Assembly: GCA_036172245.1 (NCBI GenBank) | Contig: JAYWIR010000030.1 | Span: forward strand, 1,364,001-1,428,000 | Length of the DNA stretch: 64,000 nucleotides | Direction of reading: 5' to 3' | DNA from: Raillietiella orientalis | Lineage: Eukaryota | In this document: in pieces, positions 105 through 64,000 of the stretch | Numbering within the stretch: position 1 is the first letter of the stretch | Layout: each line of letters opens with the position of its first letter | The notes under the pieces: model-generated | Told to the model about the DNA's origin: nothing | The model's database searches: none | The model's input: the letters and a program-made list of their open reading frames with translations, nothing else | Program-made: the position numbers and the translations under genes

Positions 105-347
105 CGTCCTGCCACAGACATATAGGTTTAGAAATAAAACGCCCCAGCGTGACCGGATGTCAACCAGTGCCACACACGAATGGACCAACCAGCATCATCT
201 TGCAAGGGGGACTCAAAATCCACAACGCCTCCCCCCCCTTCATCCCTCACCCCATCCTCTCTGACGTTAATCCTTCACATGAGGATTCGAACCCGCAACG
301 CCTGGTGGCACGCGCGAAGATCGCAGCTACGCGGCCGCCAACGCGAA
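105..347 (-). mobile_element. 5' part of another diverged copy of the tRNA-headed element
   Basis: Minus strand has gcgttggcggccgcgtag...gcgttgcgggttcgaatcc (B box). The + strand aataaaacgccccagcgtgaccggatgtcaaccagtgcc matches the reverse complement of 26672-26710. Confidence 0.7.
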
Positions 348-23833: not shown

Positions 23834-26508
23834 CGGCCTTCTGAAACACGGCCACCGGATTTCCAGTTTTTGTTTGCTCTGAAGCACTCTTTGCTTAACT
23901 TTTCCGTGACGCGCAGGCCATGAATCAAGGAAGCTCCACTGAAATCAGGAAAGAAGTCATCCTGATTTCAGATGTCATCACTCTTGTTTGCAATTTTTCC
24001 GTGTCATTTATAATGCTACAAATACAAAAACTGCTTTCAGGAGCCTCGATTCCCTGTGCTTTTACGGTAATGAAGATTCATTTTTGTTTGTCCCTTTCTT
24101 TCATGTAATTATCCCATGTGAAAAATGATCTTCCATACTCTTCAGCCTATTTGCTCTTGCATTTTTATGAGCCGAACCTGCAGCAAGCCATCACTTACGG
24201 TTATTATTTGCAGCATGGAACCCGGGATCCTTGGCAACCCTATCGACTCCTCTGACCACGTCTTCGAAGAGAGCACGCGGAAGCCAAACGACGGAGCCAC
24301 AGCACACGAGCACAAGTCCGCAGATGCTTCGTTTCCGGAAACTCGCACTTGAAAGATGAGCGAGGCAGGGTCAGATCAAGGGTGAAGAGCGGATTTGCGA
24401 CCCGGAGGCACGCTCACTACAGAGCGCTTCCCACAGTGGTGTGTGCCTCCTCACAGTGGCTTGATGTGGTTAGTAGGGTTTGGGGAGGATGCTTACTTCG
24501 AGTTGATGAGGATTTGGTATGCATGGAGGACGGTGAAGACACCAAACGATTCTTCCAAACTTTCTGGCGCCTTTCGCAGAATAGGGAGCAAAGCGAAAGA
24601 GCCAACGGCGTTTCGAAGTCTGTGTTCACGGGAAAATCAGCGCGCAATCACTTTAGAGGTGGGATTAGTAAACGGAGAGTTGCCTCTCCGTGATCAGCAA
24701 GATGACATGATGTTTGGAAAATGCCAAATAAAACTGGAATGAAGAAAAAAGGAGGCTCCAGCTAAAAAGCTTTCGTTTGCTTAAAGCAACCAAACATTTC
24801 AGCTGTCGCCTTAAAAGTCGGAAGTCTTTCCGCCAAGACCGGACGCCCAGTTTAGCCCAGGAGCACAAGTCTCGTCTGTCCCGAGGGCACTGATTTGGAA
24901 GCACAAATCGAATCATCTGGAATATCAAATTAAACTGGCTGATGCGTGGGAAGAAGGTAGGGGTGTAAAGGTGAATGGGAACAAAACTCGAGGCGATGAA
25001 CGTACAGAATTCTGGAATAAGGTGTACGGGAAATTGTAAATTAGAAATTCATGGATGACCAGCCGTTCGCTGGTATGATGAGTTTTACGAGCGAGGCGAG
25101 GCGTGTCGAAGAGAGGAGGATGCTCCTCCAGAGGATCCTGACTGGTTCTAGTCCAAGGACTCATGGAGCCGATTAAAAGTACTCCTACAAGATGCCACTC
25201 CGTTGCCATCACGCGTTGAGAGCCAAACTTTGAAAAAATAAAAATGGAAAACTGCGAATTTTCATCCGTGGATTCTGAAAGTTCTCATTCGACTTCCGCG
25301 ATTCTCCGGTGCTCGAGCGCCTTCTTTGCATCACATCCACGGCGGAAGCGATCGTTTTTGTTTAGCAGTTGGCATCAGATTCGTTAGAAGTCGGGTGGAT
25401 GTGGTTCCAACCTCATTCGAGCTAAAGCTACTTAGAACGGAATGCCGGCATCTCCACCAACAGATCACCAGCAATAAATGCTCCATGGAAGGAAGCCTTC
25501 GGACTGCCGGACAAAGATCCGCCTCTGGATTACGTCGCTCTAATCCGCATCGTACATCTCCTGCTGAAGCTCTTTCTTTCTCGATGCTGATTCGCATCGT
25601 AGCAAGAGTTTGTCGCACTGGCTCCTCGCAGCATCGTGCAAAGCGCTTCTAAATCAGCCCGATGGGTAGCGATGAATGTCACATTTGACACACGGAAGCC
25701 AGATCGGAACTTGGAAGAGAACGCGGAAGCAGCTGCGTGGACGATCCTGCAGCAGCACCCAGCTGCAAGATCGGAGGAAACGAAAGCAAAATTTTTGCGC
25801 TCCCCAAACATAAAATCCACATCGAAGGGCTTTAACGATATCTATAAACTCCAAGCAGAGTCAGGAAGGTAACATCGGCGCAGGATCTCCGACGTCTCAT
25901 CTCTCTAAGACTGAGTTCTCAGGAGGGGAAATGATCAGAAATTCCGTCTTTCTCTCGTGAGAGCAATGCAGACACTTATAGAAGGAAGAGTAGAAGACAT
26001 GAATTTGCATTTTTCTATTGGTCCGCTCACTGAGACAGAGGCCCGCAGACCTCTTGGAAAGTTGAATCTAGGTACCGACAAAAGAGCACAATGGTCTTGG
26101 AATGGTGTCAATCCTCATGACTTTCTTTTACAGCTCACCTTGAAGAACAAAGAATAAAACGAATGTGAGGTACCAAATTAGTGGGATCAACAGCGATAGG
26201 AAACCTAATTGAGCTGTTCAGTGTCCAAGCGGTTTCTAATATTTGTCGAAAGACTCCTCCCACAAATGCTAGGAACCCATTTCGACAGCATCTCCAACGT
26301 TTGTGGGCGTCCTGATGCCAAACCGCACTCGCACAAAAACCTGCGAGCGCTGCTGGATGCCCGGCTCCTCTGCTGAGGATTCACATCAAGCGCAGCTGAC
26401 AGACTGACTACAGCGCTAAAGATGTAGATGACCTGCGGCATTCGAATCAGTCTGACTTTGCAGAAAGACCTCTTACAGAGAGAGATTTGCTCCGGAGACT
26501 GTCGAGTT

Positions 26509-27330
26509 GCCCGCGTCGGCGGCCGTGTGGCCGCTGTCTCCGAGCATGGCGCCGGACGTTGCGGGTTCGAATCTGTCCACGTGGAGGATCGACGCCGAGA
26601 AGGGGGGGTACGTCGTGAGTTCCGAGTTCCCCCGCAAGATGACTCTGGCTGGTCTGCAGGCTCCAGGTGCGGCACTAGTTGACATCCGGTAAGGCAGGGG
26701 CGTTTATTTATGCGGGTGTGGCACTGGTGGAAGTCGGATGCCCCCGTTGTCCGGCCGGAATTGGACGCTGACCCTCAGCAGTCCCTTCCGGAACTCAAGG
26801 GATCTGTTCCCTTCGAAGATCCCCTCCGGTTGTAAAAATGGAGACGTCACCCTCCGAGGGGATCGCCTCTCCCGAGTGTCGAGAAGCGCGCTGCTGCTTC
26901 CTTCAGAGAAATTTGGAAGCGTCCCCTCCGGATTCTCTCCAGAGGAGGAAACAAGGAGCGGCTCCCTCGAGGGTTGCCTCCGAAGAAGAAATTCCAGGAG
27001 GAGGAGCGAAGAGGAGGAGAAAGGGAAGAAGAGGAGAGGGAGAAGGAGGAGGTTGGGGAAGGAGGAGCGGATCCTTTCGAGGTTTCCTTCGGAGAAGAAA
27101 ACCTTCGAGAGTACCTCAGGAGATATGAAAAAGGAGATTCCCTCCGGGGCCTCCTATCAAGCGTAAGAGTAATGACTTTCTTTTTTCAGAGCCTTCCTGG
27201 ATTCATAGGGTTGGCCCCTCTCGGGGTGCCCTCTACCTTGAAGAGCTAAGACGCACCCTGGGGGGTGACGTGGGAACGGTCCTAAAGAGCTTCGTGAGCG
27301 AACGGTTCTTCAGCAGTCAGCAACCCAAAA
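26509..27330 (+). mobile_element. Older, diverged copy of the same tRNA-headed element
   Basis: Head gcccgcgtcggcggccgtgtgg...gcgggttcgaatc. Shares blocks gagttccgagtt, ccttc.gagaaattt.ggaagcgtccc, ggagcgg.tccct, ccttcggagaaga, ccttcctggattcataggg and ggtgacgtgg with the 60-62-kb copies. No convincing TSD. Confidence 0.75.
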
Positions 27331-34187: not shown

Positions 34188-36419
34188 AAGACTCGTTGAG
34201 GCTGCTGATGTCTCGGTGCCACGACGTGCCAGACTTTCTGAAAGCACGTCACACTCTGGAATGCATCTGTGAGAGTATGCTAAGTGCGGTCTCCACTCTC
34301 CCGTGTCTGGAAAAGACGGCCGTGGGGGGATTTTCAAGTTTACGACGTGAACCAACGATCTCCGTTTTCGGGTGTTTCCTTGCAGCTCTTGCAGTGAACG
34401 TGGCTGTCACATTCACGCATTTCACGCTTGGGTGAATGTCCCTTTTCCGCTGTTTCCTGACAGCAGCCGCTGATTGAACGGAGTAGGCGGTTTCTTCCCG
34501 GATCTTCTCACCTGAAGGAACGGTTCGTCAGTTTACTTCCACAGTAATTCGACAAGACATCCCGTGCCCTTCAAAGTATCCGCATGCAAATTCCTGATCC
34601 TTGAGACTGTGAACTGAGGGTGAAACGCAGACATCTGGTAACTGCAGTGCAGATTCCAGAGCTCTGGTTGCTACGGGCTGTTTCAAGAGCTCTCTACCGA
34701 AGGCCGGCCTTTGACGCTTGCTTCATTTATGATTTCCCTCGATTTTCCGTGCTGCATCACGAATTTGTGGAGTTTCGAAGAGGAATCGCACGGAGCAGAT
34801 CGCGTATCCTTCAAGCACGAACTGTGTGTGCAACGTAGGAAGCAGGGCGAGAGTAAAAAAAAACCCCGAAGCAGTGTCCTATGTCCTTCGAGTGGCACAT
34901 GTTTCACAGCTGTGATGAGATTAAGAGTTATAAAATGAACCGTGGCGCATCTCATTTTTCTCACCGAATTTCGTCACTGCGAAGGCGGAACAGAACGGAA
35001 TCGAATGCTTACAGACAGAAGCATCTGTGCTCCCATTCTTGGCTCGTGTTTTACCTCATAGCTTGTCTTCTGCGGCTCATCTCGCAGACGTCATTTTCTT
35101 CACCTGCACAAAGCACAGCACCCTCTCTGCGTAACGAAAAGCCTTCCTAGATGATCTGGAACTGGATGCTTCTCTTCCTTTTTTTTTGACGATCCTGGAA
35201 ACCAGTGGATTCGAGGATGCGAACGATAACTTCTGCAAGTCTTCTCACTTCGTGGATCTCTTTTTTTGCTAAGCCCAGACAACGCTAGACACAGACGGGA
35301 ATGAAAGATTCCCTATTCCGGTGTTCTTAACTCGAACGTGGTCTGGCGATTCCACGAAGCGGAAAAGAAAATCTATGATTCTGAATATCTATGAATGGCA
35401 ACCCCGGGATCCTCTGAGATAGCCTTACGTTGCAGGATGCCTTTTGCTTTATGCACAGGCAGTTCTGGAATCGGGGAAGCCATTCCTCCTCTTTTGTCGA
35501 GTGATCGATACTCCACGAAGTATTTTCCCAGTACAAAGCAATGTCATGTCAACTTTTGCATCCGTTTTCAGCACTTTGTAGGTACCACTATCTCTAGAGA
35601 GTGTTTACTTTATTTGTTAGCCGTAAATCAGGACTCCAGAGCCCATCGATCCGAGAAGAGAGATACCACAATTGGCGATTTCTCGCACAGAAAATAGGGA
35701 TCACTTCCCCGACTGTAATGTCTTGAAAGACTCAGTGTACATGAAACCCCATGTGTCGCATGTTGTGTTTCGATTTCCTGCTTCCTGAAGCACTGTATCA
35801 TGGGAAGGAAACGCACGCTCCAAGAGCAGATCCATAAATAAAGCTTCTCCGGGGACGTTGCATTCATCTCGAAGAAACAATCCTTGAGTGAGCTTCCGCA
35901 AGTTTCCAGAAGACGATGAAATCATTTCTCAATAAACTGAGATTGCAACGGATGTAATCTTATCCATTTTGACAAATGATGCATGTATCGATCAGCAGAA
36001 CGTTTATCGGGAAGGAGAAAATCCATTAAACACTGGGATGAGAGACTTTATGAGGAAAGTTCCCTAAATGAATGCCTCGATTTCCAGCAACGTTCCAGAA
36101 ACCTGGAGGAACATTCATTAAACACTCGGAAATATTCTAGAAGATCAGCGAATACTTCAGTAACGACGCTTTCACTTGAAAACCGACTGATGGAAACACT
36201 GTGGTGTATGAGGATCGACGTGACTTCGTTCAGCACCCATTTCTCAAGTTGTGGTTGCATGGAATCCTCATGTTGGCAAAACTCTAAATGGTGGAACCGA
36301 AACATCGAACCGCAAGAGCTCTTTCCCTGATTTCGAAACCGTGGTTCCGCCATCCGTCATCCCAGATGCAAGATCTGCCCAGGAATTCCAGACGAGAAAA
36401 AAAGTCAACGTGGTTTGAC

Positions 36420-36715
36420 CAGCGTTGGCGCCCGTGTGGCTGAAGTCTCCGCGCGTGGCACCAAGGGTTGCGGACTCGAACTCCCACGTGGAGGACGATC
36501 GACGCCGAGAAATGGGGGCGCGTCGCGGGTTTCTAGTCCTCCCGCTAGATGACGCCAAGCGCGGCACTAAGGGAAGCCGAAAGCCGGGTGCCCCTGTTCA
36601 TCGGCCGGGATTGGAAGTCGACCCTCCGGGATCCTTCCAGGAATCAAGGAGGCGGTTCCCTTTTGCGAGGGAACGGACTCGTTTTTCCGGAACCTTCCCG
36701 GATTGATCTTCCTGG
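36420..36715 (+). mobile_element. Internally deleted copy of the tRNA-headed element
   Basis: Head gcgttggcgcccgtgtggctgaag..gcgcgtggcacc..gcggactcgaa, then gtcgaccctccgggatccttccaggaatcaagga, joined almost directly to the 3' block gaacggactc..gaaccttcccggatt. Confidence 0.7.
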
Positions 36716-37177
36716 GAAGACGAATCCAGGAAGCTGGAACAGAAGACTTGCAGAGTTATCGCTCTCATCCTCGAGTCCACTAGTTTCCAGCTATAAGGTA
36801 ACACATGAGCCACAAATGGAAACAGAGACGTCCTTAACTGAAATTACACGCATCAGCGTGTGACTTCAGCTATAAAGTGAGGACAGCTTCTGTGACTCCT
36901 TGTGGTTTTCCTTAAGTCCTTTGAACGGTCCCAGCCGTATTTAGGCGTTCGAGGCTACCACCTACTAATCACCATGTCTTTTCGAAAGCATGTATACTGT
37001 ATACACGCATATTCTGTATTGATGGAATCAAAGAGGAACCGTCACAGGCGTCTTCGTGAGTGCGTTTATCTGTCTTCCTCTTTGCATTCCAGTCTTGCAA
37101 GTGTTGTATCGCTACTCTCATTAAGCAATAAAATAATAGTCAGATGACATCTCCATGGCAAGGTTCCAAAAGTTTCG

Positions 37178-37252: not shown

Positions 37253-37290
<38 letters not shown>

Positions 37291-37949: not shown

Positions 37950-38990
37950 CGGGTCGTTTATTTATAAATCATCTGGGAACGGGGTTCCCGGACAAAGGAC
38001 ACAGGAAAACGAAGGTCGGGAAAAATGAAAGTCCTGAACGGGAAGGAGGGGACCACAAATACACGTGTAAAAAAATACAAATAAAAATATGGGGAGGGTA
38101 GGGGACAGAGGTCTTTGGCTTCGGCCGTTCCTTCTTTTCAAAACCGGGGCTGGGTGTCGGAGATTTCGTTCCCTGCGTCTTTCGGAAGATGAAACCAACC
38201 GGCAGCCGACGTCATGTTCTCGTCGGTTATTCCGTTGACCTGTCGACGAATCGCCTGCGTATCCAGCTCTCGGTGGGCCTTGTCGATGGCGCGGGTGCAA
38301 CAGACCGTTGCGACCATCGCACCTAACGACAGGCCGACTGGCGTGAAGAAGCGGCGCATCAAATCCCTTGCGGTGTCCCCCTGGAGCAGGAGAGCTGAGG
38401 CCAGCCTCCGCCACAGTCCTTGGAGGACACGGCAGTCCAAGAGCAGGTGCGGGAGCGTTTCTACTTCTCCGCACCTTTTACAGTTCGGGGAGACAAATCC
38501 CCCGGAAACACGGTTCGTCCGCTGGTTGGAATGGTAGCCCCAATGCACCAGCATGATGAAGTCCTGCTTCCAAGAAAGGGGGAACACTGAAGTGTTCAAG
38601 CAGGAGGGAAGGACCACAAGTTCTTCTGGGGGCACACTCAAGAGTTCGCTTCACCGAAGGAGTCCCTTCGCCATGCTACGAGGCGTGGCGGCATCTGCCA
38701 GCTCTCCTCCAGCCGCCCATGGGTCGGGTTGCTCCTGTGATGGTGCAGGCGACCTCCCACCTCGCCGGTAGGCAGCTGTCATCACCGGCCCTGAGGGCAG
38801 ACAGCGCTTCGGCGAGAGGTGTGACGGCCAGGCGAGTCCACTTCTCCTGGTTCTGCATAACCTCCTCCACTGTAAAGCAAGGAGAAAGGTTCGCGCAACG
38901 GAGTTCCAAGCGGGACACATCCTGTTGCCTTGCCCAGGCATTCATGAAGAGCTCGGGCTCCTGCTCTATGCGAGTATTTCTTTCTCCTTG
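37950..38990 (-). mobile_element. 5'-truncated L1/Tx1-like LINE 3' end with CCHC zinc knuckle and 3' UTR
   Basis: CKRCGEVETLPHLLLDC (C-x2-C-x7-H-x4-C) followed by LW in ORF 38138-38641. Upstream frame is broken by a stop and a frameshift. Pyrimidine-rich 3' UTR with AATAAA near 37960. Confidence 0.75.
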
Positions 38991-46400: not shown

Positions 46401-46513
46401 TGGGAATGCAGCAGAGTATGAGATACACATCTTTACACATTCCTCAGCAGGCTTTTTTTTTTTAAAAAAAAAAAAAGGGAAGGGGACTTTCTGCAAAAAG
46501 AAAAAGAAAGAAT

Positions 46514-49239: not shown

Positions 49240-50832
49240 ATGTCTATCGATGATATCAAGTTCTTTAGAGGTATAAAAGCTTGTATTCTGCCATGTGGCA
49301 TAGGAAAAAGGAGGTTAAAACTTTTAAAAGATCAAATGGAACATTATGGAGCTACATGTATTCAACGAGATAATATTTCTGAACACAGTGATCTTACACA
49401 CTTAATAGTGGATGAAAGCTATGATGCTTGTCGACTTTCCAAACTCTTATCAACTCTTAACATCCATAATAATACAGCAATTGTCTCAACTAGATGGGTG
49501 AGCCAGTGTTTGAAATGGAAAGAATTGAAAGAAGAAGACGATTACAAGATACTAGTCACAACACAGGCAGATACTGTTTCCACACAAGTTCCTGATATTC
49601 CATTTTCAGAAACTATTAATGCTAATGACCAACACAAAAATCCAGTCTTTGAATCAAAGAGTCTTCTTGCAAGAAATGACCCTATTGAATCACTTCATAG
49701 TATTTCTGAAAGTCAGAACATTAATGAACATGTCATTGGTGAATTAGAAAAGCTAGCACAGACTCATCGCTCATTGGGTGATACCTGGAGAGCAGTGAGC
49801 TATCAGAGAGCTGCCAGTGCCATCAGAAACTTGGGTACACCAATAACAGGTAAACAAATTGATAGGAGAAAAACGAAGTAAAGATTATTTAGGGATAGAT
49901 GATATTCAGAGTATACCAGGAATTGGTTCTCGACTAGCTGCCAGGATCTGGGAAATAATACAAACAGGACATTTGCGCAAAGCTGAACAGCTTTGTAGTG
50001 CTGAACACCAAAAAGTGCTAGATTTATTTAGTTCTGTTTGGGGTGTGGGACCAACAACTGCTTGGCAATGGTATAATCTTGGCTTTCGTACATTGAAAGA
50101 TGTGGCCACCAACTTTTCACAACTGACAAAACAGCAAAAATTAGGGTTACAGTACCATGAAGATCTGCAATGTCGTATCCCTCGTGATGAAGTGGAGAAG
50201 ATCTGTAAATTTGTAAAATACCATTTTGGAATTCCACTTCTCTAATGTTATTACAGGTTGAACATAGAGCTGAACACTTGCTTCAAGATGTGCAGATCAT
50301 AGCTTGTGGATCATACCGTCGTGGAAAACAGTTTTGTGGAGATGTAGACTTAGTGTTTTGCCATGCAGATTCTGAGAAACTGGATGATCTGTTTCCTAAA
50401 TTGTATGCTATTCTCCATAGGGAAAGTGAGTTCTGAAGGTTTAAGCTTATTACAGTTGCATTCAGATTTCCTCACAGATGATCTCTTGGTATCCAATGAA
50501 AAAGGAGGGCATTGGAGATACCTAGGCATTTGCCAGCTAACCAGTCAAAAAGTAAGCTTGAAATAGCCAAACAAGTAGTGTGCTGTCAGCATCGTCGCTT
50601 GGATATGTTTGGTGTTCCTGAAGATTGTTTAGCTCCTGCCCTTCTCCATTATACAGGATCAGCACTTTACAACCAAAAGCTCCGTCTCCATGCTAAGAAA
50701 AATGGTATGAAATTGACAGACCAAGGCCTCTGGAAAGCAGGAATACCTGAAAAATTGCCAACACCAACAGAAGAGGCCATCTTTCAGTTGTTGGGTGTTC
50801 CTTTTTGTTCTCCAGATCAAAGAAATATCTAA
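49240..50832 (+). CDS. POLL: DNA polymerase lambda (family X; BRCT + 8-kDa + nucleotidyltransferase), 5 exons: 49240-49849, 49893-50212, 50257-50425, 50466-50551, 50590-50832 (475 aa)
   Basis: Motifs: N-terminal BRCT-like segment (LTHLIVDE...IVSTRWVSQCLK), GDTWRAVSYQRA, HhH motifs IPGIG and VWGVGPTTA, GSYRRGKQFCGDVDLV, HRRLD, TGS..YN, PTEEAIFQLLG. Four GT-AG introns of 43, 44, 40 and 38 nt join the ORF pieces in frame (1428 nt including stop). An in-frame TGA lies just upstream of the ATG. Confidence 0.95.
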
Positions 50833-52095: not shown

Positions 52096-55000
52096 TTACA
52101 ATGTCTCAGATTTTATCTCAGGATGTTTTTCCATCCATTCATCTAACTGAGACCGAAAGTTGTCTGTCCAAAATATTCTCTTCTTTGCTTCTTCCAAGAC
52201 TTCTTCAGAAAAATGCAAAAATGTAGGACTTTTCTTCTCAAGGAATGCTTCAAGCTATCAAAAAAGACAGAAATGTAATGAGCACACTAGATGCTTACAC
52301 AAAACTTGACTTGTGATTTTTTTTTTTGACTTAGTGCTCCTGGTAATATCACTAAGTCCTTATGATAATAATCCTATTTAGAGTACAAAAAACTAATGAA
52401 GGAATTCAGTAATTTATGAAAAAATGTTCTGCGGAAATTGTGGTCAAAGGTTATTCAAAAACAAAATTTGCTAGTATAATCATAAAATAAAAAACTTGAA
52501 ATTGTGCTTTCCTAATCCAACACAAAAAACTTGATTATTTTCAGAGGCCAAGCAGTAATTGTTATTTCCATTATAAGAAACGTAAAAAAAAAGGGGGGGG
52601 CATAAAAGATATAAAAATTGTGACATCAGCCCACATGACATGTTAAAAATGACTAATTATGTACATCATTACTAATTGCTCCACCGTTTCGTTGAATTTT
52701 AAATCGTTTTATCACCTTAATTCTTGTTTTCCTTTGAATGAACACATATACAAACATCTCATTTTTATACCCACTAATTTAAGAGGTCACAATGTCCGTG
52801 CGTTACTAAAGGAGTTTCAACAAAACTAGCTTATCATAATATACGTATTTTTGATAATTGTACGTTCCCTGTAGTGATAGAGTTTTGGCCTAATTAGCAT
52901 AGAATTCCAAACCAGCGTTTCAATAATTTCTAAGAATGCATGATGGAGGCAAACCTGATACAAGTGACAGCATAAAACAAAATTACAGAAGGACGCTTGA
53001 ATAGAGGATTTTGAGGGGAACCATAGCTGTGTCATTAACTGTAAAGAGGATGTAATTTAAAATACTCCTCTCTAAAAATGCACAAAAACACTGACTGACT
53101 CATTCTCCTCGGGAAAGAATGAAACTCATAGATCAAATTTCATAAACGGGTTAGTTAACGTGAATGAAAATGAATAAAAGGGAGACATTATAGACAAAAA
53201 AAAAAATCCTCCATAGCCCAAAAGGATTGCCAAACTGGACTAAGATGACCGACATTGAATATTAATCAAGAATGATAAAAAGCTTAAAAATATTTTTGAT
53301 GGAAGATTCATTAATGAAAACAAAAAACATGCTCGGAAGATATCTGAAGTATTGAAGAAGAAGGAAAAAAACAGCGAAGCGATGGTATCTTCCCTACTTC
53401 AAATTAAGTTGTCCTGATTGCCTATTTGGGGAAAATCTGTTCATGAAAGTGAACACGTTTTCCCAAATAAATTTACTAATCTCACAGACTAGCTCTACAC
53501 CAGAGGTATGCAATAAATACGCCCTAATGCTAATCAGAACAATAAATAATCAGGATGATTAGTCTTTGACTCATGAGTTTTGATCCACCTAAAGATGCAA
53601 GTCTTGTGCATAACAACAGATATGATGAAGAGTAATTCATAACTTCTAATAGTGCAAAGTAACCAATGTTCTTCCATAAAATTAATACATCGACTTGTGC
53701 TTTCGCTTCATATACGAAATTCACACCCTTTCTATATTCTTTTGATATTCACCCATATATACCCCTTTGCATGCAAATAGTTTCATTTGATAAACATCAC
53801 TATTCAATGACTAACCAACTGGTTAGCTCTTTCGAAACATAAAGTGAAATGGAGCAACTGGAAATAGTTGCAAATATACTAAATATTCCCTTCGTTTTAT
53901 CCAGAAGACCTATCTTGTAGACTGAAGTTTGAATTATTTTTATCGAAATTTGCATTTAAAAAAAAAACACACACACACATCAGAATGTTTCTTCATAATA
54001 CTATTCAAAATTTGACTATCAGATGTACATATCTTCTAATCTAAAAAAAGGCTAGTCAAAATAATGATATAAAAATATACTTTTCTCTCTAAAGACGTAT
54101 AAACCGTTAACTAGGAAGCACATTGAGGGAGCTGAAAATTTCTGGCTGGTAATTGATCACTTTCTTGAAGTTATCAATTTTTTTTAACTATGCAGTGGAT
54201 TCAGGCAAATGTGAAATGGATAAATACGAAATGCGCCGTTTGGCTAAGCGTAAACTTTGGAAGCTTTAATCCTTAGAAAAGGAAGGAAGAGCACAACTGT
54301 TGTCTACAAGAATTAGCAGAAAGGATAGAATTTATTTTGAAATGGTTTTCCCGTTGCAAGTTGAAATCTCTTTATTACTGCATTTATCAAATCGTTGTTT
54401 ATTTGATTGCGTTTATAATTAGGCTAATGACTACAAGTAGCAACGATTTATTACTTGCACTCCGATACTTACTTCTGTAATTTCCATCTGTAGGTTCATG
54501 GTGTTAATGATTGCCCGTATTAAAAAATGTAGCGCCGTGGTTGGCAGGATATTTTGATAATCTTCAAACTTCAACCGTAGATCTCGCCAGATGAGAAATT
54601 TTCCAGAAGGATCTTGGCTCAATCTGTCAAAAATTGCAAGGAGGCTATCTGGAGAAACTCTTGCCTTCTGTGATGACCACTCCAGAAGACTAATTTGAAG
54701 CAAAAAAAAATCATTTCTGTTGAACAAGATTTTCTAAAAGAATAAAAATACTAATTTACATGCAAAGACCACAAAAGATCAACGTTATCATGGAAAAGAG
54801 GAATAACTGTCATAAGCAGTGCCGGTGGAACAAAGATGCATGTCTCATCACATCAGCATTGTACTATACAGTTCGTTCGATTAACATTGGCGTTGTGAAT
54901 TCTGTTTGGGGGCAGAAAATATAAACCCAATTCACTGAAAAAACAATTTTTTTTCTAGAGAGCGTTGTGCCCACTTGAAAGTGCTCGGATGCTCTGTGCA

Positions 55001-57338
55001 ACACTCAGCAAGGATCGACTCAGTATCGAAACAGTAAAAACAAAAGCACAAGTGAAACAAATCTTACACTTCATGAAAACTATCGGCAGAAGTATTAAGA
55101 GTAGATTACAGCAGAAAGCCTATAATAAGTGTACTCTACTGATTTCTTGATAGCAGAAAGCGTTCCATATTAGATTTATGCATACGTAATATTCCTCAGA
55201 TGAAGCGTATGCATTTTGAGATTATTCTGCACTTGAGATTTTGTCGAGTATCCGATTACTGATGTCTTTAACGAAAAGGTTTACTCGTTCTTCGAATGAC
55301 CCATCTCACGTGACAAACGGATTCTTCACTTTGCCAAAGATCTGAGACAGAGACTATCTCGGTTTCGAGCACCATCCTCTGATTTCTGCTTCTTAGCTTA
55401 AATGAATCTTCTAAAGATCCTCTCGTCAAGTTATCATCCTGAACGAAGAGAGCCACGTTGCTTATTCCCAAAGGAAAACAGTTTTGGCTCCGATGAGAAG
55501 GAGCAGGTTCTTGAGCTCTGGTAATATCCATTTCATTAAGAACAGATATGACCTTTCACTCGACTCCTGACAGCACTTAATAAGTCAAAGCAAAGTGGTC
55601 TTTGTCAAGTGGACCGTTCCTCTCGAGATTTCCTCTGACGTTCTCTGAAAATGAGTTTGAATTATTTGGATGAAGAATGATTCCTCAACATGGAAGCATT
55701 GAGTGTTTGCTTGTAGTGTCTTCTTCTCGAGAGGAGGCTTCACAATCTGTAAACTGTAAGAAAAGAGTAGGACTTACATAAAAGAGTAAATGTCAGGGAT
55801 AGAGTCAAGAACAACGCTAGTGGGAAAGGATTTCACAAACTGGAACAGCGTCCCATGGGATCGAAATCTAAACTGTTTAGCGCAAGGTCGATTAGCAGAT
55901 TTCCACTCTTGGTATGCGGCGCCATCACTTTCATACTTTTGCGTGCAAACAAACATTGATAAATTCGGGTTACAAAGAAAACTTCGGGAGTTCGCTCCGC
56001 CAGTCGGATATCTCTTTAGAGGGAACTCACTCCTATCCTCCTTGATATCCTTTCGTGCATTCTTGTTCTTTTGGAAAGCTCTCACGTGAGCTCTCCGGAA
56101 GAACCGTTCGAATTCTGAGAGCGGAAGAAAAAAAAACATTATACTTTTACTTGTTGCTGATGCAAAATCGCTACGGAACCACCCGAGTTTCTAGTTCTTT
56201 GAAAACAGTTAGCTTGTAAAAGAGGAAAAGAGAGAAGGCTAATGGCTCGGGGTACAAATACAATCAAAGGGAGGAAGCAGCATATCTACAAAAGCAAAAC
56301 GAGTACATACTACTGCAAGAGATCGAAATCACTGGAATATGAAATGGCATTCAGGATGATGGTTCTGTCTTCTGATTTGAGTTTTTCCCAGGATTCAAAG
56401 AACTCTTGGGATCCTCCCCATTTAATGCCTGCTATATATGTCGCTGGTAACAAATTAGCATGTACAATGTCTCCTTTTTCCACCATATTTTTGTACATTT
56501 CCCTTCCAGCCTCAATGGAGTTCTCTAATCCTATCTCCAGAGTCAGTGGCAGTATCAGTGATCTCAGCATTCTACCAACGCATTAGTCGCTTTCTATCAC
56601 TAGACGGGAGCTGACCTGGTGAGGTGATCTCCCGTATTGTTCCAGCCTAATGATTGGTAAATGGGAAGGATCAGGTACTTGGTAAAAACTTTCATATGAT
56701 TCGAAGTAGGTTGCAGAAGAGATGTGGCGAGCGCCAGATTCCTCAAGTGCCTGATGGCTACGACCCAGACAGAGTAATCGTTTTGATATCTGAGCTGCAT
56801 CAGAAAATCCATCAGCACGTGTGCGCTTAGGTGTCCTGACCTGGAAGAATCATCGCTGCTCTTCCCGATCTCTTTGTTTAGACCAGAACTCACATGCAAA
56901 GCGTATGAGCATCGTTCAGCAATCCGATTCTATCAGCGCTGGACAAGGCACTACTGTTGAACGCATCACTCAGGAGTTTCCAGTTCCTCCTGCTGTAAGT
57001 TGTCCTGAAGAAACCAGTGTGATCCTTGTTGCACTTTATCCAAGAGGAAGACGACCCCGAACTTATAGTCTGGACTAAACAAACTGACTCTTTTCCATGA
57101 GGTTACCAAAGACCTGACTTGGTTTCGTCCCCATGATCAAAGAGAAGGTTTCGTTGGCATCAGTGAAGCAGACGAGAGAAATCACCCAGTTATAGCGGTA
57201 ACGATGCTGTGAATGTTTGGATTCTTGGAAGCCAGACTCATAGTGATTTTGCTCCACACTCGCAATCTTCTTTGCATAATCTACTCTGATGGTTATTACA
57301 GGAAATCCTTCTAGTTTGGACCATGATTCCATAATGTG
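52096..57338 (-). CDS. M1-family aminopeptidase, 3' part (post-catalytic beta domain and ERAP1_C-like domain); exons 57338-57107, 57074-56894, 56840-56616, 56571-56311, 54689-54473, 52254-52096
   Basis: The spliced translation is continuous and phase-consistent: HIMESWSKLEGFPVITI...WIKCNKDHTGFFRTTY...DRIGLLNDA...YQNDYSVW...YQSLGW...DFDLLQYLLEW...DPSGKFLIW...EITE/LEAFL...IFWTDNFRSQLDEWM*. Introns are GT-AG, 32, 53, 44, 1621 and 2218 nt. AATAAA (minus strand) at 52028-52033. GAMEN/HEXXH exons not found in the window. Confidence 0.88.
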
Positions 57339-58447
57339 CTGTAAGATATAAGAGAGCAATGCTATTAAAAAAAAAAAAAAAAAAATACAATGGCATTCGT
57401 TTCTCTTTAGAGCATGCTTTGTGCACAAAGAATGGAATTTCGCGAACAGAGTTTGCGTTTGTATTCGCATGAGCGAGAACTCTTCAGCAAGAAGAATCAT
57501 AGTGATGAATCAGCATTGCTGCTGCAGAATTACAAAGCTGGATCCAAGCGCTTCTTCAATTCAATTCTGAGTGACCAAGTACATGGAGAGATAAAGTCTT
57601 TATGTACTCTTTAATGTATCCAATGGGAAGCGCAACATCAGATGGAATCCGCACAGGAATTTTCGGTTTTGAAACTCGAATTACCTAGGAAGCTCAACAG
57701 TAGAGAAATAGAAACAGATGTTCACTTTGAGGAACCAGGCCTCTCTGGACCAATACATCCAAGCATCCTGCCTCGGCTTTCTTCCCAGCCTCATTTTCAG
57801 TTTCTTCTAATATGTGGTTCTGAGATCCGTACTGATGAACACAGCCATCAGGACCGAAAATCTTGCAAGAGAAGAAAGAAAAAAAAGAAAATGGAACGGT
57901 TGCTTGGAATGGAGCATTTGGATGCTTCCAAAACAAATCCTTTCAATATAAAAGGATAGTTCCTGTGAAATGGCGGGAAGGAAAAAGTCACCAGGAGCCC
58001 CACTGATAAGACAGCTCTACATAAAATAAGACAGGCAGAAGTGGACCATGTGATCCTTTTCGCGGATCAAAGAGCTCCATATCCAAGGCAGCAGCTCACC
58101 AAATGCATTACACGGGTTCTAACGCTCTGGGACACTCAAAGTTCCAGAGAATTCTCAAAGTGGCATGCAGATAACTGTTAGAAAAAGTTGGACACCAAAT
58201 GGCGTGAAGGAATTTTCACCCCAAACATCAGCAAAGAATGCTTATCTCTAATGGGTTTGCGAGTTTGGATGAGTGCGATCTTGGAAAAAATTTACGAGGT
58301 TTCGATTTACAGAATGCTTTCTTATAGGTTTTTGACTTCATTGGGTTTTTGAAATTTCTTGCCGTTCGGGGAGTCTAGATGAGACACGAAAAGATGGTAT
58401 TCGGATGGGGAAATGCCAGGAAGGTGAAGAAGAGCGGATGCAGATCT

Positions 58448-58549
58448 GAGCATCGTTCAGTAAACCGATGATTCTATCAGTGCTGGACAAGGAAATACTG
58501 TTGAACGCAACCGGTGTGATCTCTGTTGCATTTCATCCAAGAGGAAGAC
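58448..58549 (-). pseudogene. Decayed partial duplicate of aminopeptidase exon 56894-57074
   Basis: gagcatcgttcag..attctatcagtgctggacaagg..tactgttgaacgca..gtgtgatc..tgttgca..tccaagaggaagac aligns by eye to 56907-57051, with an internal deletion of ~45-50 nt and small indels. Confidence 0.75.
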
Positions 58550-60438
58550 CGTCTTTATCCATTCACCATGTGAGAAAGAGCTGTCCTCATGTTGCACGTC
58601 CCTTGTGCCTTTGGTGAATCCTAGGTGTTCTCTGGACTGCCTCTTATGGAAGTCAAGGAAGCGAAAGAGATGGAACTGCAATGCTGTTTGAACTTTGAGG
58701 ATGAAGGGTAGGATGATTCGGCGCGAATCCTACGACAAGTAGGTAGGGGTTCTGTTTAGGAGGGAAAGAGGGAGAGCACTGGAATGAAAGAGCCTGTGGA
58801 AGTGAACTGAAAAAGAAGGAACACCATGCGGAATTTGGCGGGCTTAGTTAAGAGAGAAAGGCCTCAACGTTGACCATTTAATCATCTATTGGAATTATTT
58901 AGTTTGTGTACGTTACAAAAACTATTAAATAAAAAAACCCATTGGTTTAGTAATATAAAACTGAGAAAATTTCTGAAATGAACTCCTAAGAACGGAAGCA
59001 TGCTGAAGTGAAAGCATTCAAGGAGAAAAACAGGGAACGGACCCTACATTCATCTGGGGGTCATCGATCAGGAGTTTTTTTCTCTCTCTCTCATAAACAG
59101 TCCATTTTTTCTGATTGGATGGTTTTGTTTTTACTAGATTCTTTTCCCTCTTTTGTCTTCGGCGGAAACATGAAAGATGAACGAAAGTGCAAAATTGTCT
59201 GAAGATGACCCACCTCGCAGTTTTTTCAACCCGGCACGGTGCACGTGAACGAACCCGCTTGACAGTTGCCATGCAAAAAGTCAGAGGGGTGCGAGGAAGG
59301 AATGAGGAATGTTCCTCCGAGATTGCAGACTGCATCGAAGGAAGGTGGTTCCCACAGCTGGCGAAGACACGTGCTGCGTCGGGAGAAGCCAAAGGGGACT
59401 CTGTATCAGACACAACACGAGCTCTATCCCACGAGCGCATAGAATGATTTTTCTGCCTCTCAGGTGCTATGAGCGGATCGAGATGCATTGGGAGAGAGAA
59501 GTCTGGAGCCAGCGTAAGAACTGCGACGCGATTCTCATGGTGCACGTGAAACTTCAAGCACCACCTCGCGACGGATTCGAAGCTGACCGGCGCCAAAACG
59601 CCGGTTTGAAACCTGACCGTTCTGCCTATAGCAACCTTTAATCTCCACGGGCGGATTCAAAGAGACTGGACTCTGTGAAGCACTCTCGTTGTGCGCACAC
59701 AGAACTCAAGACAGAAAAGGCGACCGACTTTCCTGACTTTCAGAGCACCACGGGATGATAGGAGGTTGCATCAGCGTTGCATACTTACTCACGTATAGAT
59801 ACGGATCCATGTCTATAAATGCACTGCGTTAGGTAGTACTGTCAAGATGTTAGCCATGGTGTCGTGTACGCAATGATCTCCTTGAAGAACTGAGTTTTCG
59901 TAAGACGGAGGGAAGCAGAGCACCTAAAAATGTTTGTACATTGACACAAGACTCAGAGTTCCATCACATTCATCATGAGGATCCTTTTAAACCCTTCATA
60001 ACCCTATGATTGTGAGCGGCTTTTGGAAGCAAAGAGAGGAAAAATTGCGAGTTTCTCCGCGGTCGTGCCTAGTGTGTAAAAGGCAGTAAAAGGATGAAGT
60101 TTTCTGAGATGTGTGTCTACAGTGAGCTCCGCCATCCTCTCAGTCAAAGAGATAGAACCTGAAGCTGTCAGGAGAAAACCCCCAGAGGCTCTACATAAAA
60201 TAAGAAAAAGTTGAAGATACCATCCTTTAAAATGCCTCACCAGCTCGTGAAATGATGCATAGACAAGGGGGGGAGGGAAAGCAAAGTTGCAAAATGGGGG
60301 CGTGGGGTGGTCTCACAATTCGGTGGGAGCCCGCCCAAGGTCTATTCTGAGAGTTGTCCACAGCAAGGTTCAGTTTACAAAAAGGGGCGCTTGCTTTGAG
60401 ATGACAAGACAGCAGGTCAGTCCCAAAGGGTAGAAATT

Positions 60439-61284
60439 TCCCGCATCGGAGGCTTTGTAGTTAAGGCTTCCGCGCGTGGCACCATGCAACGCGGATTCGA
60501 ATACTGCGGCAGAAACTGACGCCACTGCGTCGTTGAGTTCCGAGTTTCTCCTGCAATGGCGCTGGTTGGCCGAGACTTTCGGACGTTGCAACGGTGCTCG
60601 TTTAAGCCGGAACAATGGGAATCGACCTCCGGGTACTCCCAGGAATCAAGGAGTGGGGAGTTCCCCCTCCGGTCGAACAACGGAGAGCGGACACCCCACA
60701 CCAGGGGAACCCCTCCGGTTTCAAGATGCGGCAGGAGCCTTCACAGACACCTCTCCAGTTGTTTAAAGGAGCAGACTCCCCCCTGTTGTGGGGGGGACTT
60801 TCCGAGTCGCTGCCTCTCCAGAGAGTGCAAGGAAGCAAGCAACAGCGATCACCCTGTGGGAAGCTGCAGCGCCCCTTCTGAGAAATTTCGGAAGCGTCCC
60901 TTGGGGGTTCTCTTCATAGGATTGGACAGGAGCGGTTCCCTTGCGGGCTCCCTCCGGAGAAGAAATTCCTACTAGCGGACCCTTTCCGGGTTCCCTTCGG
61001 AGAAGATGAAATGGAGAGGACCACCCCCTCCCAGGGGATGTTCCTCCGGAGAGAATGAGGAAGGAGATTCCCTTTGGAGACAACCAGGGGGGGGGGGGGT
61101 GCGATCCCCCCTCCCCAAGCGTGAGAGAAACGGACTCCGAACCTTCCTGGATTCATAGGGCGGACCCCCTTCCGGGGTGCCCTCCTGTCTTGAAGAACAC
61201 GTACCCCCCGCGGGTGACGTGGAGCAGTGTTAAGAGCCACGTGCGTCGCGAGGCACGTGACCGGCTCTTGAGGTGCTTAGAGAA
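60439..61284 (+). mobile_element. tRNA-headed long SINE-like element, full-length copy with 16-bp TSD
   Basis: Head cccgcatcggaggctttgtagttaagg...gtggc...gcggattcgaata (A- and B-box-like). Perfect direct repeat ccaaagggtagaaatt at 60423-60438 and 61285-61300. No TTTT on + strand. Hairpin-array body. Confidence 0.85.
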
Positions 61285-61719
61285 CCAAAGGGTAGAAATT
61301 GCTTTGGCTTTGTCGGCGCTTCCTTTGAAGAACTGTCCACATGAATGAGAATGGGTCCACTGATTCGAAAAAAGCTCTTTGCGGGAAGCTGCAAGACTTC
61401 AGATGAAGGGAAGAGATCGAACGACTTTTCTCCTAGGAGGCAAGCGGCAGTTTATCGGCATTCAGTTATCAAGTTTAGCACGAAGTCAACTGCGTAATAT
61501 AGAGGATGTGTATATATCTTGTATGGAAGATGAAGATATGGATTCTACATGATGGATTTGATGCTAATATGAGCACTTGAAAACACGCAGCAGATTGTGG
61601 AAGTTGCAAAAGTCAGTGTTTACTCCAAAGATAAACATAGGATACGGTCATGTTTGCTTGGACCAAAAAGGATGGCGATTCGGAGAATGAGCTGAAGACG
61701 ATCATCAAAAGTGCCCATG

Positions 61720-62805
61720 TCGGAGGCTTTGTGGTTAAGGCTTCCGCGCGTGGCACCATGCATCGCGGGTTCGAATACTTCGGCAGATAACTTGACGCCA
61801 TTGCGTCGTTTGGGTTCCGAGTTTCTCCTGCAACGGCGCTGGTTGGCCGAGACATTCGGGCGTGGCCCCGGCTGTGGATAAAGCCGGCGGCCTCCCGATG
61901 AAGGCCGGAACAAGGGGAGTCGACCTTCGGGTCCTCCCAGGAATAAAGGAGTGGGGAGTTCCCCCTCCTGTGTGCAAAGGAGAGTGGACCCCCGTCACCG
62001 GGGGACCGCCTCCGGTTTCAAGATGGAGCAGGAGCCCTCACGGGCACCTCTCCAGTTGCTCAAAGGAGCGGACCCCCCCCTGTTGGGGGGTCCCTCCGAG
62101 TCGTCGCCTCTTCACAGAGTGTGTACAAAGGAAAGAAGGAAGAGAGAGCGATTCCCTGAGGGAAGCTGCAGCGCCCCTTCTGAGTTTCGGAAGCATCCCT
62201 TCGGGGGTTGTCTTCAGAGGAGCGAATAAAGGAGCGGTTCCCTTGTGGGTTCCCTCCGGAGAAGAAATTCCTAGAAGCGGATTCTTTCCGGGTTCCCTTC
62301 GGAGAAGTTGAAATGGAGAGGACCACCCCCCATTGCGGGGGGTGTCCCTCCGGAGAGAATGAGGAAGGAGAGATTCCCTTCGGGGTTCCCCTTCGGAGAC
62401 AATCAGGGTGGGAGGTGAGATCCCCCCCGGACGGGGGATCCCTCCCCAAGCGTGAGAGGAACGGACTCCGAGCCCTTCCTGGATTCAATAGGGCGGACCC
62501 CATCCCGGGGTGCCCCCTATCCTAAAGAATATTACACTGAAGAATTACACGCCCCCCCCTGCGGGTTGCCGCGGACAGGCATGGAAACAAAAGTGTGTTA
62601 ATGTTTAAAAAGAGCCACGCGCGCCGCGAGGCACGCGACCGGCTCTGAGGTACTTCGCGAACCAAAAAAAAGAAAACTCTTAAAAAAAAGAAAGCTGGAA
62701 GGAAAACAGCGAAGACAAAAGAAAAAGAACCCAGGATTTCCATCGTCCTAGGCCAATAGTAACGATCTCCTCGTGGGGTCGCTACTGGCTTTAAAAAAAA
62801 AAAAA
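61720..62805 (+). mobile_element. tRNA-headed long SINE-like element, copy with extended 3' end, poly(A) and 13-bp TSD
   Basis: Head tcggaggctttgtggttaagg...gcgggttcgaata. Collinear with 60439-61284. A-tract at 62793-62809. Direct repeat aaaagtgcccatg at 61707-61719 and 62806-62818. No TTTT on + strand. Confidence 0.85.
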
Positions 62806-64000
62806 AAAAGTGCCCATGCTTTCCAAAGCATTTTAGCGGAATTTCAAAAAAGAACTTCTCGACCACAAATGAGACCTCAAGGTGTTGCAACACTCCCGAA
62901 AAGCTGAATCAGACAGTTGCCCCAACACTAGCGAATAGAGAAATTTTCCACTCCAGCCACCATATCCAGAGGAAATCGAAGGAAGAAAACTCGGATGTGC
63001 GTCCACTCTTCTTCACTTTCCTGGTATTTCTATGTCCGAATGCCATCTTTTGGGTCTCATCGAAACTCCCTGAACGGCAAGGAATTTCAACAACCAAAAA
63101 GGACGTCAAAAAACTATGGGAAAGCATTCTGTAAATCGAAACCGCCTAATTTTTTTCCATGATCGCACCAAACCGCTGCTTCGTAGTTGTGAAAGAGACT
63201 GTGGGCGACTAGGCAAGGAGTAAGCCATATGGAAATGTTCGAAATAGGGATTTCACTTTCGGGAAGAAACAAAGCAAAGGTTGTGACCGATGTCATCTTG
63301 TCGGTACAGGGATAACTGCTATTGGTCGGGTTTCTAGATTGAGAGTAACGAGGAAGCTGCTCCGAGATGTGTCCGTAACTAATCCGTGTGTCACCAAATG
63401 TGACGACGTGAGCCATCCAAATGCGACGTGTGATAGTGTGCTTCTAGCTGACGCTTCTCAACGTAAGTTCCTCGGGAACGAAAGGGAAAGCAGACGTCTT
63501 TTAATGCTTTCCGATTGAAAATGAACACAAAATCGGTTTCGGAATGAAAACAAGCGAGCCTACGGGGTTTACTTCTAGAATTTTCTAGAAAGAAAAAGAA
63601 TGCAATGAAATATCCGTCTAGATCCTTTCTCCTCTTTTTCCTTTAGAACATTTTTGTTCCGAGAGCACTGATGGGTGCACAATTTCCTTCTTTTTCTTGT
63701 ATCTTAACCTTGCCTGTTGGCAAGGTCCACTTCCGTTGCACAAATACCATCACCCGTCAACCCTTAGTCATCAACAGATAGCACCTACATCATTTCTTTC
63801 TCCCGATACAACCTTACTACGACATCAAGGACTAGTAACTACGAGATTCCGATTTTTTTTTTTTTACTCTTATTTTTTTTTTCTTTCCAAAGATACGTTT
63901 GCTAAACTATGGAACCCATGACATCTCGCTTTAACTGTTCATATTACGACATGCCCCTCTATAGAAAAAGAGCATGTGTGGATCAGGAGATTCGGGTCAG

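Follow-up and report, generated by a model that had tools for sequence, protein, structure and literature searches.

An unusually long SINE-like retroposon family with a body of GC-rich hairpins

Results

The window, by which we mean the whole 64-kb stretch of DNA analysed, contains five relatives of one repeat family identified by nhmmer, and these represent at least three subfamilies (Table 1). Two of them, c60 and c62, are neighbouring insertions on the same strand (+). The 3′ end of c60 reads GAGAACC and overlaps the TSD into which it merges, so that its end can be placed anywhere from 61284 to 61289; the whole c62 insertion lies between its TSDs at 61720-62805. c26 is colinear with c62 from head to tail at 58% identity and carries a low-complexity purine-rich insert and TTTTTT. 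The ~300-nt c36 has a head, the core and only 2-3 hairpin units, followed by a AACGGACTC...CCTTCC.GGATT block and without the long array, and c0 runs toward the window start.

The family is interspersed in many copies, with five in 64 kb and further matches in two public data sets, X1 and X2, whose sequences are contigs of DNA or of unrecorded kind and are uninformative on transcript ends. X2 holds 89 contigs that match at 85-99% identity, and X1 holds a single 955-nt contig whose entire length matches c62 at 61728-62671, its borders being those of the element. Seed-word searches of viral contigs returned no family copy; in a metagenome search a 19-mer seed found one contig, and in prokaryote genomes a 23-mer found none and the 19-mer one chance match (a bacterial MAG), with nhmmer confining the similarity to the seed word in both. 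At 847-957 nt, the range that we quote for the family (846-847 nt in c60, 949 nt in the family part of c62 and 955 nt in the X1 contig), the element is unlike tRNA-derived SINEs, which are typically ~100-600 nt long (the range quoted in the original prediction) and which all three of these sequences exceed. Including its 3′ extension, c62 comes to 1099 nt.

Table 1. Positions of family members and their parts in the window
Feature	Position	Strand	Evidence
c0, head and core of a c26-like relative	139..345	-	nhmmer E 2.5e-19
c26, divergent subfamily	26505..27325	+	nhmmer E 2.6e-214; alignments
c36, ~300-nt relative	36419..36720	+	nhmmer E 1.2e-19, model positions 17-300
c60 5′ TSD CCAAAGGGTAGAAATT, 16 nt	60423..60438	+	exact repeat at 61285-61300
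c60, full-length member	60439..61284	+	nhmmer E 9e-280; 85% identity to c62 over aligned columns
c60 B-box-like motif GGATTCGAATAC	60493..60504	+	5-copy head alignment
c60 3′ stem-loop counterpart	61234-61271	+	z -1.95
c60 3′ TSD CCAAAGGGTAGAAATT	61285..61300	+	exact repeat of 5′ TSD
c62 5′ TSD AAAAGTGCCCATG, 13 nt	61707..61719	+	exact repeat at 62806-62818
c62 family-homologous part (head, core, hairpin array, 3′ stem-loop, GAACC, start of A run)	61720..62668	+	nhmmer E 1e-279
c62 B-box-like motif GGGTTCGAATAC	61767..61778	+	5-copy head alignment
c62 hairpin array, modules M1-M13	61915..62519	+	local folds; per-module shuffles
c62 3′ terminal stem-loop (AGAGCC...GGCTCT)	62611..62646	+	z -2.33; 4/200 shuffles as good
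c62 A-rich run and ~95 nt of unrelated sequence	62669..62792	+	outside family model; X1 contig stops at 62671
c62 A17 tail	62793..62809	+	TRF; final 4 A shared with TSD
c62 3′ TSD AAAAGTGCCCATG	62806..62818	+	exact repeat of 5′ TSD

TSDs had been predicted for the two neighbouring copies, and both c60 and c62 have perfect ones that start with AAA after a pyrimidine. Their lengths of 16 and 13 nt give the variable-length TSDs expected of a SINE, and a search at c26 and c36 returned none (TSDs in two of the four copies searched, which were c60, c62, c26 and c36). The perfect 16-nt and 13-nt TSDs and the A17 tail speak for a mobile element. The copies are shown to insert via target-primed reverse transcription, which leaves an A tail and, at sites of the form YC|AAA(A)G, TSDs of 13-16 nt.

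At the 3′ end the order is stem-loop, GAACC and A run, the stem-loop of c62 being followed by GAGGTACTTCGCGAACC and then the A run. The stem-loop is present in both c60 and c62, and a CGCG to CGTG change on both of its arms results in G.U pairs. No long A tail is present at the end of c60. In c62, ~124 nt separate the family end from the A17 tail, and this segment, which has no second copy within the 64-kb window, came either from read-through at the 3′ end (transduction) or from another small retrocopy that landed within the tail; it suits a polyadenylated Pol II-like read-through transcript as well as a nested insertion. A partner LINE would supply the enzymes for insertion, and the feature that it recognises may be the 3′ stem-loop, the A tail or both. 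No LINE with a matching 3′ end is found in the 64-kb window, where a Pfam search for LINEs among 296 ORFs gave only a weak zf-RVT match (38141-38650); the 3′ UTR of this sole LINE trace is unrelated to the family.

The element is non-coding, as is usual for a SINE, since none of the 12 ORFs of ≥104 aa inside the copies matched Pfam and 13 of the 21 indels that separate c60 from c62 have lengths not divisible by 3, in agreement with the original prediction that indels break the reading frames.

The head spans ~70 nt and includes, around +50-60, a B-box-like GGGTTCGAAT block. The head alignment places this block among the best-conserved columns, near-identical in four of five copies, and its spacing from the 5′ end is constant; the c36 version is degraded (GGACTCGAACTC). 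By eye, the block resembles the Pol III B-box consensus, to which the motif of c0, GGGTTCGAATCC, comes nearest of all heads; the A-box match in the heads is poor. ARAGORN at its default called a tRNA in none of the five heads, and Rfam searches of 100-nt slices yielded no tRNA at a cut-off as lax as E≤10. Relaxed ARAGORN calls were Leu(aag), Arg(gcg) or Ala(agc), with two of five heads called at the 80% threshold vs 16 of 200 (8%) shuffled heads, and four of five at another relaxed threshold vs 38% of shuffled heads, so that the calling rates are close to those of shuffled sequence. His was never among them, and the tRNA-His head that had been proposed is not upheld; of the proposed A/B-box-like head the B-box-like block is the one part well conserved, in four of five heads, and no cloverleaf is recognised. 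The comparison with Rfam that had been suggested likewise returned no family for head, body or tail. Judged from its sequence, the head resembles a tRNA-related Pol III promoter of type 2 that has degenerated, and the B-box-like motif is our one ground for suggesting that the element is probably transcribed by Pol III, which would start from this internal promoter.

The run of T residues that stops Pol III offers no further help. TTTT is absent from c60 (847 nt) and from c62 with its extension (1099 nt), as had been noted for 850-1085 nt, but 37% of composition shuffles likewise lack it, so that the absence is within chance and T4 avoidance adds no support to Pol III transcription. c60 also lacks AAAA, and c26 and c36 contain T4-6 runs. 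No AATAAA lies near the 3′ ends of c60 and c62.

Downstream of the head, the conserved core consists of a GACGCC...GCGTCG hairpin followed by GAGTTCCGAGTT...GCAAGATG.CGCTGGTTGG. The body is then made of roughly ten degenerate units of 34-52 nt, each a GC-rich hairpin (GGAG-N-GGAyCCCC / loop / GGGGrTCC-CTCC) and a purine-rich linker. Local folding of the c62 body gives 13 candidate stem-loops, 10 of them with a GGAG/CTCC-type base and separated by purine-rich linkers, which bears out the predicted run of GGAG/CTCC stem-loops; the four hairpins quoted as examples were located at 61915-61938, 62065-62097, 62231-62257 and 62315-62351. Nine of the 13 modules beat >95% of their own shuffles (p≤0.05) and eight do so at p≤0.005. 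GGAG occurs 17 times and CTCC 11 times in c62 vs 6.4 and 4.1 in shuffles. We conclude that the hairpins are real in c62.

Folded whole, the + strand of c62 reaches z -7.32, with none of 20 shuffles as good, and the - strand reaches z -5.25. c62 contains 10 and c60 contains 7 instances of the loop motif cUNCGg (CT.CGG) vs ~1.3 expected, and its reverse complement is found only twice in each; CTTCGG is found 6 times and CCGAAG not at all, counts that are not independent because several copies derive from one duplicated motif. With these strand-asymmetric loops, hairpins in the sense-strand RNA seem to be favoured, if mildly, and the stable cUNCGg loops may serve RNA stability or compactness. The hairpin signal is strong in the young c62 and much weaker in c60, whose 16-nt TSD is equally perfect: c60 has lost M4, others of its modules are weakened and its global fold gives z -2.57. 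The hairpins therefore seem not to be individually required. c26 folds as a whole no better than its shuffles (z -0.48).

Our covariation tests rest on three full aligned copies (c60, c62 and c26), and a MAFFT alignment of the hairpin modules was not structure-consistent, so no covariance model was built from it. c26 retains 62% of the c62 pairs vs 36-44% in slid controls, and 5 of the 13 modules are still significant hairpins there, with M3 and M4 formed by different stem sequences. However, pairs that have changed are still paired only at the chance rate, in 48 of 129 cases from c62 to c26 and in 26 of 61 from c62 to c60. The original prediction of largely persistent pairing is thus at most partly confirmed for c26. 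Across the three sequences, 16 pairs have changed on both sides, whereas shuffles give 8.6 ± 2.2, with 2 of 500 reaching that count, and slid controls give 5-13. Covariation across the three aligned copies is thus mixed and at most weakly positive.

Comparing c62 with the X1 contig, 21 of 31 differences fall at unpaired positions, which are 37% of all positions (p 0.0006). The folding energies of c26 and c60 lie within 1-2 sd of neutral simulations started from c62, so that neutral decay is not rejected, and substitutions that distinguish c60 from c62 have a rate of 0.143 in stems and 0.132 in linkers, with loops at 0.212 (p 0.10).

The long body may have arisen by repeated, minisatellite-like internal duplication of one palindromic unit. 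A GGG(N)TCCCTYCGGAGA motif recurs every 45-52 nt, a motif comprising a 3′ arm and its linker recurs at 34-52-nt spacing, and 62202-62262 is similar to 62336-62399 (74% over 65 nt, E 2.6e-6); TRF reported no tandem array in the hairpin body. These observations lend weak support to growth of the body by duplication of a 34-52-nt hairpin unit.

Discussion

We think it likely that c60 and c62 are members of a multi-copy, non-coding, LINE-dependent SINE-like retroposon family of 0.85-0.95 kb with a hairpin-array body. The diverged copies, perfect TSDs, A tail, non-coding sequence, 5′ B-box-like block, conserved core and 3′ stem-loop fit the unusually long SINE family of the original prediction. The family would be an unusually long, in other respects ordinary, SINE-type mobile element. 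If this reading is right, an abundant SINE-type parasite helps account for the GC-rich gene-free 45 kb next to AT-rich genes. That would be normal genome ecology which opens no long-standing question, and the family is worth masking in annotation. It is mildly instructive in that its length is far over that of typical SINEs and its body was apparently enlarged via hairpin-unit duplication. The short form, the weak array and the strong array make a natural series on hairpin load versus Pol III transcript length, RNA stability and LINE-mediated mobilisation.

The hairpins could be without a role at the RNA level, being DNA palindromes spread by minisatellite-like duplication and homopolymer slippage and carried passively in an ordinary SINE, which we regard as possible if somewhat unlikely. 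Both strands beat their shuffles (z -7.3 and -5.3), the upper stems are slippage-tolerant C-run/G-run pairs and hairpin strength differs greatly among copies with perfect TSDs; moreover, c60 and c26 are both compatible with simulated neutral decay, divergence is similar in stems and linkers, and the short relative c36 is without the array. Passive palindromes do not readily explain the asymmetry of cUNCGg over its complement (10 vs 2 in c62, 7 vs 2 in c60), although the derivation of part of the CTTCGG copies from one duplicated motif weakens these counts, nor the greater stability of the + strand, each strand being measured against its own shuffles, nor the bias of the c62-X1 differences to loops. 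The same strand-biased signal, strong in the youngest copy c62, could instead mean that the copies are retropseudogenes of a functional ~0.9-kb Pol III RNA, with ~10 UNCG-capped hairpins selected as repeated protein-binding sites. Between c62 and the X1 contig loops vary and stems are kept (21 of 31 changes unpaired), there is a modest excess of double changes (16 vs 8.6 ± 2.2), M3 and M4 are rebuilt from other sequence in c26, and the X1 contig, from a run of unrecorded kind, spans exactly the element and could be a transcript. We nevertheless hold a functional RNA of this kind to be very doubtful: the presence of at least three subfamilies, diverged and all with insertions, is more typical of a self-propagating SINE than of one conserved master gene, c60, which has a perfect TSD, lacks M4, has weaker versions of others and reaches no better than z -2.6, changed pairs keep pairing at the chance rate only and no Rfam family matches. 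It is also quite improbable that the family stands as a class of its own among Pol III-type retroposon RNAs, ~0.9 kb long, with a selected array of ~ten cUNCGg-capped GC hairpins and hypervariable loops that forms a putative multivalent platform, to which, for example, an RNA chaperone of the host or the RNA-binding protein of the partner LINE may bind. Were it so, the RNA would be structurally specialised and the element no passive SINE.

Transcription by Pol II has also to be weighed, with the family as a polyadenylated non-autonomous retroposon (LINE-derived, 'LINE-promoter' or Eg-R1-type) and the B-box-like block as a relic or a coincidence. Its 0.85-0.95 kb exceeds the usual Pol III SINEs, the head is not recognisable as a tRNA, T4 avoidance is not significant with T runs present in c26 and c36, and c62 has extra 3′ sequence ahead of a pure A17, as in 3′ transduction. 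Long Pol II-transcribed SINE-like elements exist, as described for Eg-R1 (PMC6022598) and the mollusc LP-SINEs (PMC4758252). However, the GGGTTCGAAT block is near-identical in four of five diverged copies at the distance expected of a B box, neither 3′ end has AATAAA nearby, c60 is without a long A tail and the family has no similarity to the window's one LINE fragment, and on balance we judge a Pol II element to be unlikely.

tRNA-derived SINEs have a head-body-tail build and a 3′ stem-loop recognised by a LINE (PMC4758252; see also the abstract of PMC5135761). The family resembles them in being interspersed and non-coding, with variable-length TSDs and several subfamilies, and in having an internal B-box-like block near +55, a conserved centre and a 3′ stem-loop followed by an A-rich end. 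Besides its length, it differs in a head not called a tRNA by ARAGORN or Rfam and in a body of ~10 apparently related hairpin units. SVA (SINE-VNTR-Alu) elements occur in hominids only, are transcribed by Pol II and have VNTR units that are exact. The family would share with them a non-autonomous, LINE-mobilised way of life, a length of ~1 kb or more, possible 3′ transduction and an internal GC-rich tandem-unit array with a unit number that varies among copies, whereas the units of the family are too diverged for TRF to report and a B-box-like motif lies at its 5′ end.

The mollusc LP-SINEs and V-domain SINEs are about 300-520 bp long, carry a single conserved hairpin subdomain and have short tandem repeats at their 3′ ends (PMC4758252). 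The family has in common with them a stably folding conserved stem-loop in the body and a modular exchange of head, body and tail, but by their description it is longer, with many hairpins. Eg-R1/Egh24 of cereal powdery mildew is, like the family, an abundant, SINE-classified non-LTR element, longer than classical SINEs and gene-adjacent in a repeat-rich genome. Eg-R1 is described as being without A and B boxes and as Pol II-transcribed, with internal T runs and an AAUAAA signal (PMC6022598). We dropped an identity with Eg-R1/Egh24 on these differing features as described, and nothing links the window with fungi.

The window is not indicated as fungal, given that the best and sole named homologue found for its PolX gene is a Pol lambda-like protein of a sea cucumber (50% identity). 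The host is probably an invertebrate animal. By HMMER, the PolX protein has an identity of ~35% or less among the strongest matches listed. The introns of the gene, read by eye, are 40-52 nt long, which suggests a small-intron invertebrate.

Organization of the repeat family

The interval 60439-62805 contains two separate insertions of one repeat family on the same strand, c60 and c62 (copies are named by their kb position in the window), and the target-site duplications (TSDs) originally noted for these neighbouring copies are present as exact repeats. The two copies share 85% identity in aligned columns and are 21 indels apart; 13 of these are not multiples of three, which bears out the original observation that indels break reading frames, and the 12 ORFs of 104 aa or more within the copies are all without a Pfam match. 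Using a search profile built from three copies, we found 5 family members in the 64-kb window.

Coordinates of family copies and neighbouring genes in the window
Feature	Position	Strand	Remarks
Copy c60	60439-61284	+	Exact 16-nt duplication CCAAAGGGTAGAAATT on both sides
Copy c62	61720-62805	+	Exact 13-nt duplication AAAAGTGCCCATG on both sides; A17 at end
c62 3′ extension	62669-62792	+	A-rich plus unique sequence; no second copy in window; fold z -0.43, no better than shuffles
Copy c26	about 26505-27325	+	Divergent; colinear head to tail; 58% identity to c62
Copy c36	36419-36720	+	Relative of about 300 nt
Copy c0	345-139	-	Fragment, head plus core
DNA polymerase X (lambda-like) gene	49237-50829	+	BRCT, HHH_8, fingers and thumb domains
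M1-family aminopeptidase exons	about 54431-57509 and 58338-58729	-	ERAP1_C match at 56600-56929

The family also occurs in two other public contig data sets, X1 and X2. X2 contributes 89 matching contigs (85-99% identity), and a single 955-nt contig in X1 corresponds from its first to its last base to 61728-62671. Because of this end-to-end match, the family unit must end at GAACC plus an A run, and c62 carries 124 extra nt between this end and its A17 tract. The family is a genuine long SINE-like retroposon, present in multiple copies, whose body is built of hairpin units. A non-exhaustive full-text literature search returned no description of it, and it is possibly in repeat catalogues already. 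Mollusc SINE architecture and LP-SINEs are among the topics described in PMC4758252.

The original description of a tRNA-His-like head did not hold as stated. ARAGORN called no tRNAs across the whole window, and Rfam gave no tRNA at gathering scores, in the 2.6-kb region at E≤10, or in slices of 100 nt taken around two of the heads. Relaxing the ARAGORN thresholds to 80% gave calls for 2 of 5 heads versus 16 of 200 shuffled heads (4 of 5 versus 76 of 200 at 70%), and the anticodons were discordant across heads: Leu, Arg and Ala, never His. In the five-copy head alignment, the block (G)GGTTCGAAT(A/C)C holds a constant position about 50-60 nt from the 5′ end; four copies carry it almost unchanged, c36 has a degraded version, and it is among the best-conserved columns of subfamilies otherwise 40% diverged. 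By consensus this block resembles a B box of Pol III promoters or the T-arm of a tRNA; the A-box match is poor. The head is followed by a conserved core comprising a GACGCC...GCGTCG hairpin and then GAGTTCCGAGTT...GCAAGATG.CGCTGGTTGG.

The hairpin array and its conservation

Local folding of the c62 body yields 13 stem-loops (M1-M13) at 61915-62519, 10 of them with a GGAG/CTCC-type base, and the hairpins originally quoted lie exactly where they had been placed. Compared with their own shuffles, 9 of the 13 modules beat 95% and 8 beat 99.5%. The folding energy is -450.5 kcal/mol (z -7.32) for the whole of c62 and -423.7 (z -5.25) for its complement, and GGAG and CTCC are enriched 2.7-fold. The array appears to consist of degenerate tandem units of 34-52 nt, with the motif GGG(N)TCCCTYCGGAGA repeating at this spacing; TRF did not detect the units, which are too diverged, and there is one internal self-match (65 nt, E 2.6e-6). 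In the short relative c36, head, core and distal block are present together with two or three units, and the absence of the long array there suggests that the long form arose by unit duplication. Within c26, a purine-rich low-complexity (GGAGGAG-like) expansion at 26985-27060 (+) takes the place of the M9-M10 region. A perfect 12-bp hairpin resembling family modules, GGAAGGAGGGAC-GTGA-GTCCCTCCTTCC, was observed outside any detected copy at 32506-32533 (+), on the margin of the 32-34 kb stretch, which is 56% GC and lacks Pfam matches.

Evidence on conservation of the fold, from only three copies, is mixed, and the original observation that pairing is largely kept across copies stands in part. 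Five of the 13 homologous segments in c26 are still significant hairpins, with M3 and M4 stems of different sequence, and 16 pairs in the three-sequence alignment are changed on both sides, versus 8.6 ± 2.2 in shuffles (a count matched by 2 of 500) and 5-13 in slid controls. The X1 contig differs from c62 at 31 bases, 21 of them at unpaired positions, which make up 37% of all positions (binomial p 0.0006), and the differences cluster in hairpin loops. There are 10 copies of the stable-loop motif cUNCGg (CT.CGG) in c62 and 7 in c60, about 1.3 being expected, and two of its reverse complement in each, a sense-strand bias; CTTCGG occurs 6 times and CCGAAG 0, these counts not being independent because three CTTCGG copies stem from a duplicated motif. 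Against conservation, changed pairs remain paired no more often than background, both between c62 and c26 (48 of 129, 37%; slid controls 36-44%) and between c62 and c60 (26 of 61), and the global fold z falls from -7.3 in c62 to -2.6 in c60 and -0.5 in c26, where 6 of 20 shuffles are as good. Neutral simulations started from c62 came within 1-2 sd of the folding energies seen in c26 and c60, and c60/c62 divergence is similar in stems (0.143) and linkers (0.132) and stands at 0.212 in loops (p 0.10). Since its 16-nt TSD is perfect, c60 is probably a recent insertion, and the weakness of its array is an argument that mobilisation does not depend on individual hairpins.

Transcription and mobilisation

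The duplicated part of the insertion sites begins with AAA after a pyrimidine, and the TSDs and A tail at such sites are the signature of LINE-type target-primed reverse transcription. Copy c62 begins 7 nt inside the family 5′ end, and its TSD closes with GCCCATG, similar to the GCCCGCG that the copy lacks, a likeness suggesting that 5′ joining was of the microhomology-assisted type. The 3′ stem-loop (fold z -2.3 in c62, -1.95 in c60) may be recognised by a partner LINE; none was found within the window. The sole LINE trace there is an ORF at 38141-38650 (-) that weakly matches zf-RVT (E 6e-4), the zinc knuckle at the C-terminus of LINE ORF2; no RT domain was detected upstream, and the 3′ UTR of this ORF shows no relation to the family tail.

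Transcription would be driven by Pol III from the B-box-like block. The reported absence of TTTT is correct for c60 and c62 but adds little to this argument, since 37% of composition shuffles also lack TTTT, c60 lacks AAAA as well, and c26 and c36 contain T4-T6 runs. Alternatively, the family could be a Pol II-transcribed, polyadenylated retroposon, with the block a relic or coincidence; PMC6022598 describes Pol II transcription for Eg-R1, a SINE-like element without A and B boxes. The 124-nt extension of c62 could be read-through (3′ transduction) or a nested small retrocopy, and read-through with polyadenylation would favour Pol II.

Genomic surroundings

The window is eukaryotic DNA, with an AT-rich gene island at 46-58 kb (33-38% GC) holding the PolX and aminopeptidase genes between repeat-rich flanks of about 50% GC without Pfam domains. 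The PolX gene has four GT-AG introns of about 40-52 nt (by eye), and the only named homologue obtained was a sea-cucumber Pol lambda-like protein (50% identity). Upstream of the aminopeptidase exons lie ORFs in which the motif 'DRI(I)GLLNDA' is repeated; they may represent one exon in duplicated, degenerate form. Two T-run/A-run palindromes of the GC T10-13 A10 GC type lie at 40085-40111 and 46452-46477, one of them at a GC-rich/AT-rich border. At 5468-5858 (-), amid sequence that is not rDNA, an isolated fragment aligns to positions 1491-1886 of the eukaryotic LSU rRNA model (102.5 bits, E 2.6e-23) and resembles a fragment of an rRNA pseudogene or retrocopy, and a (TG)n microsatellite lies at about 37248-37290, about 0.5 kb downstream of c36.
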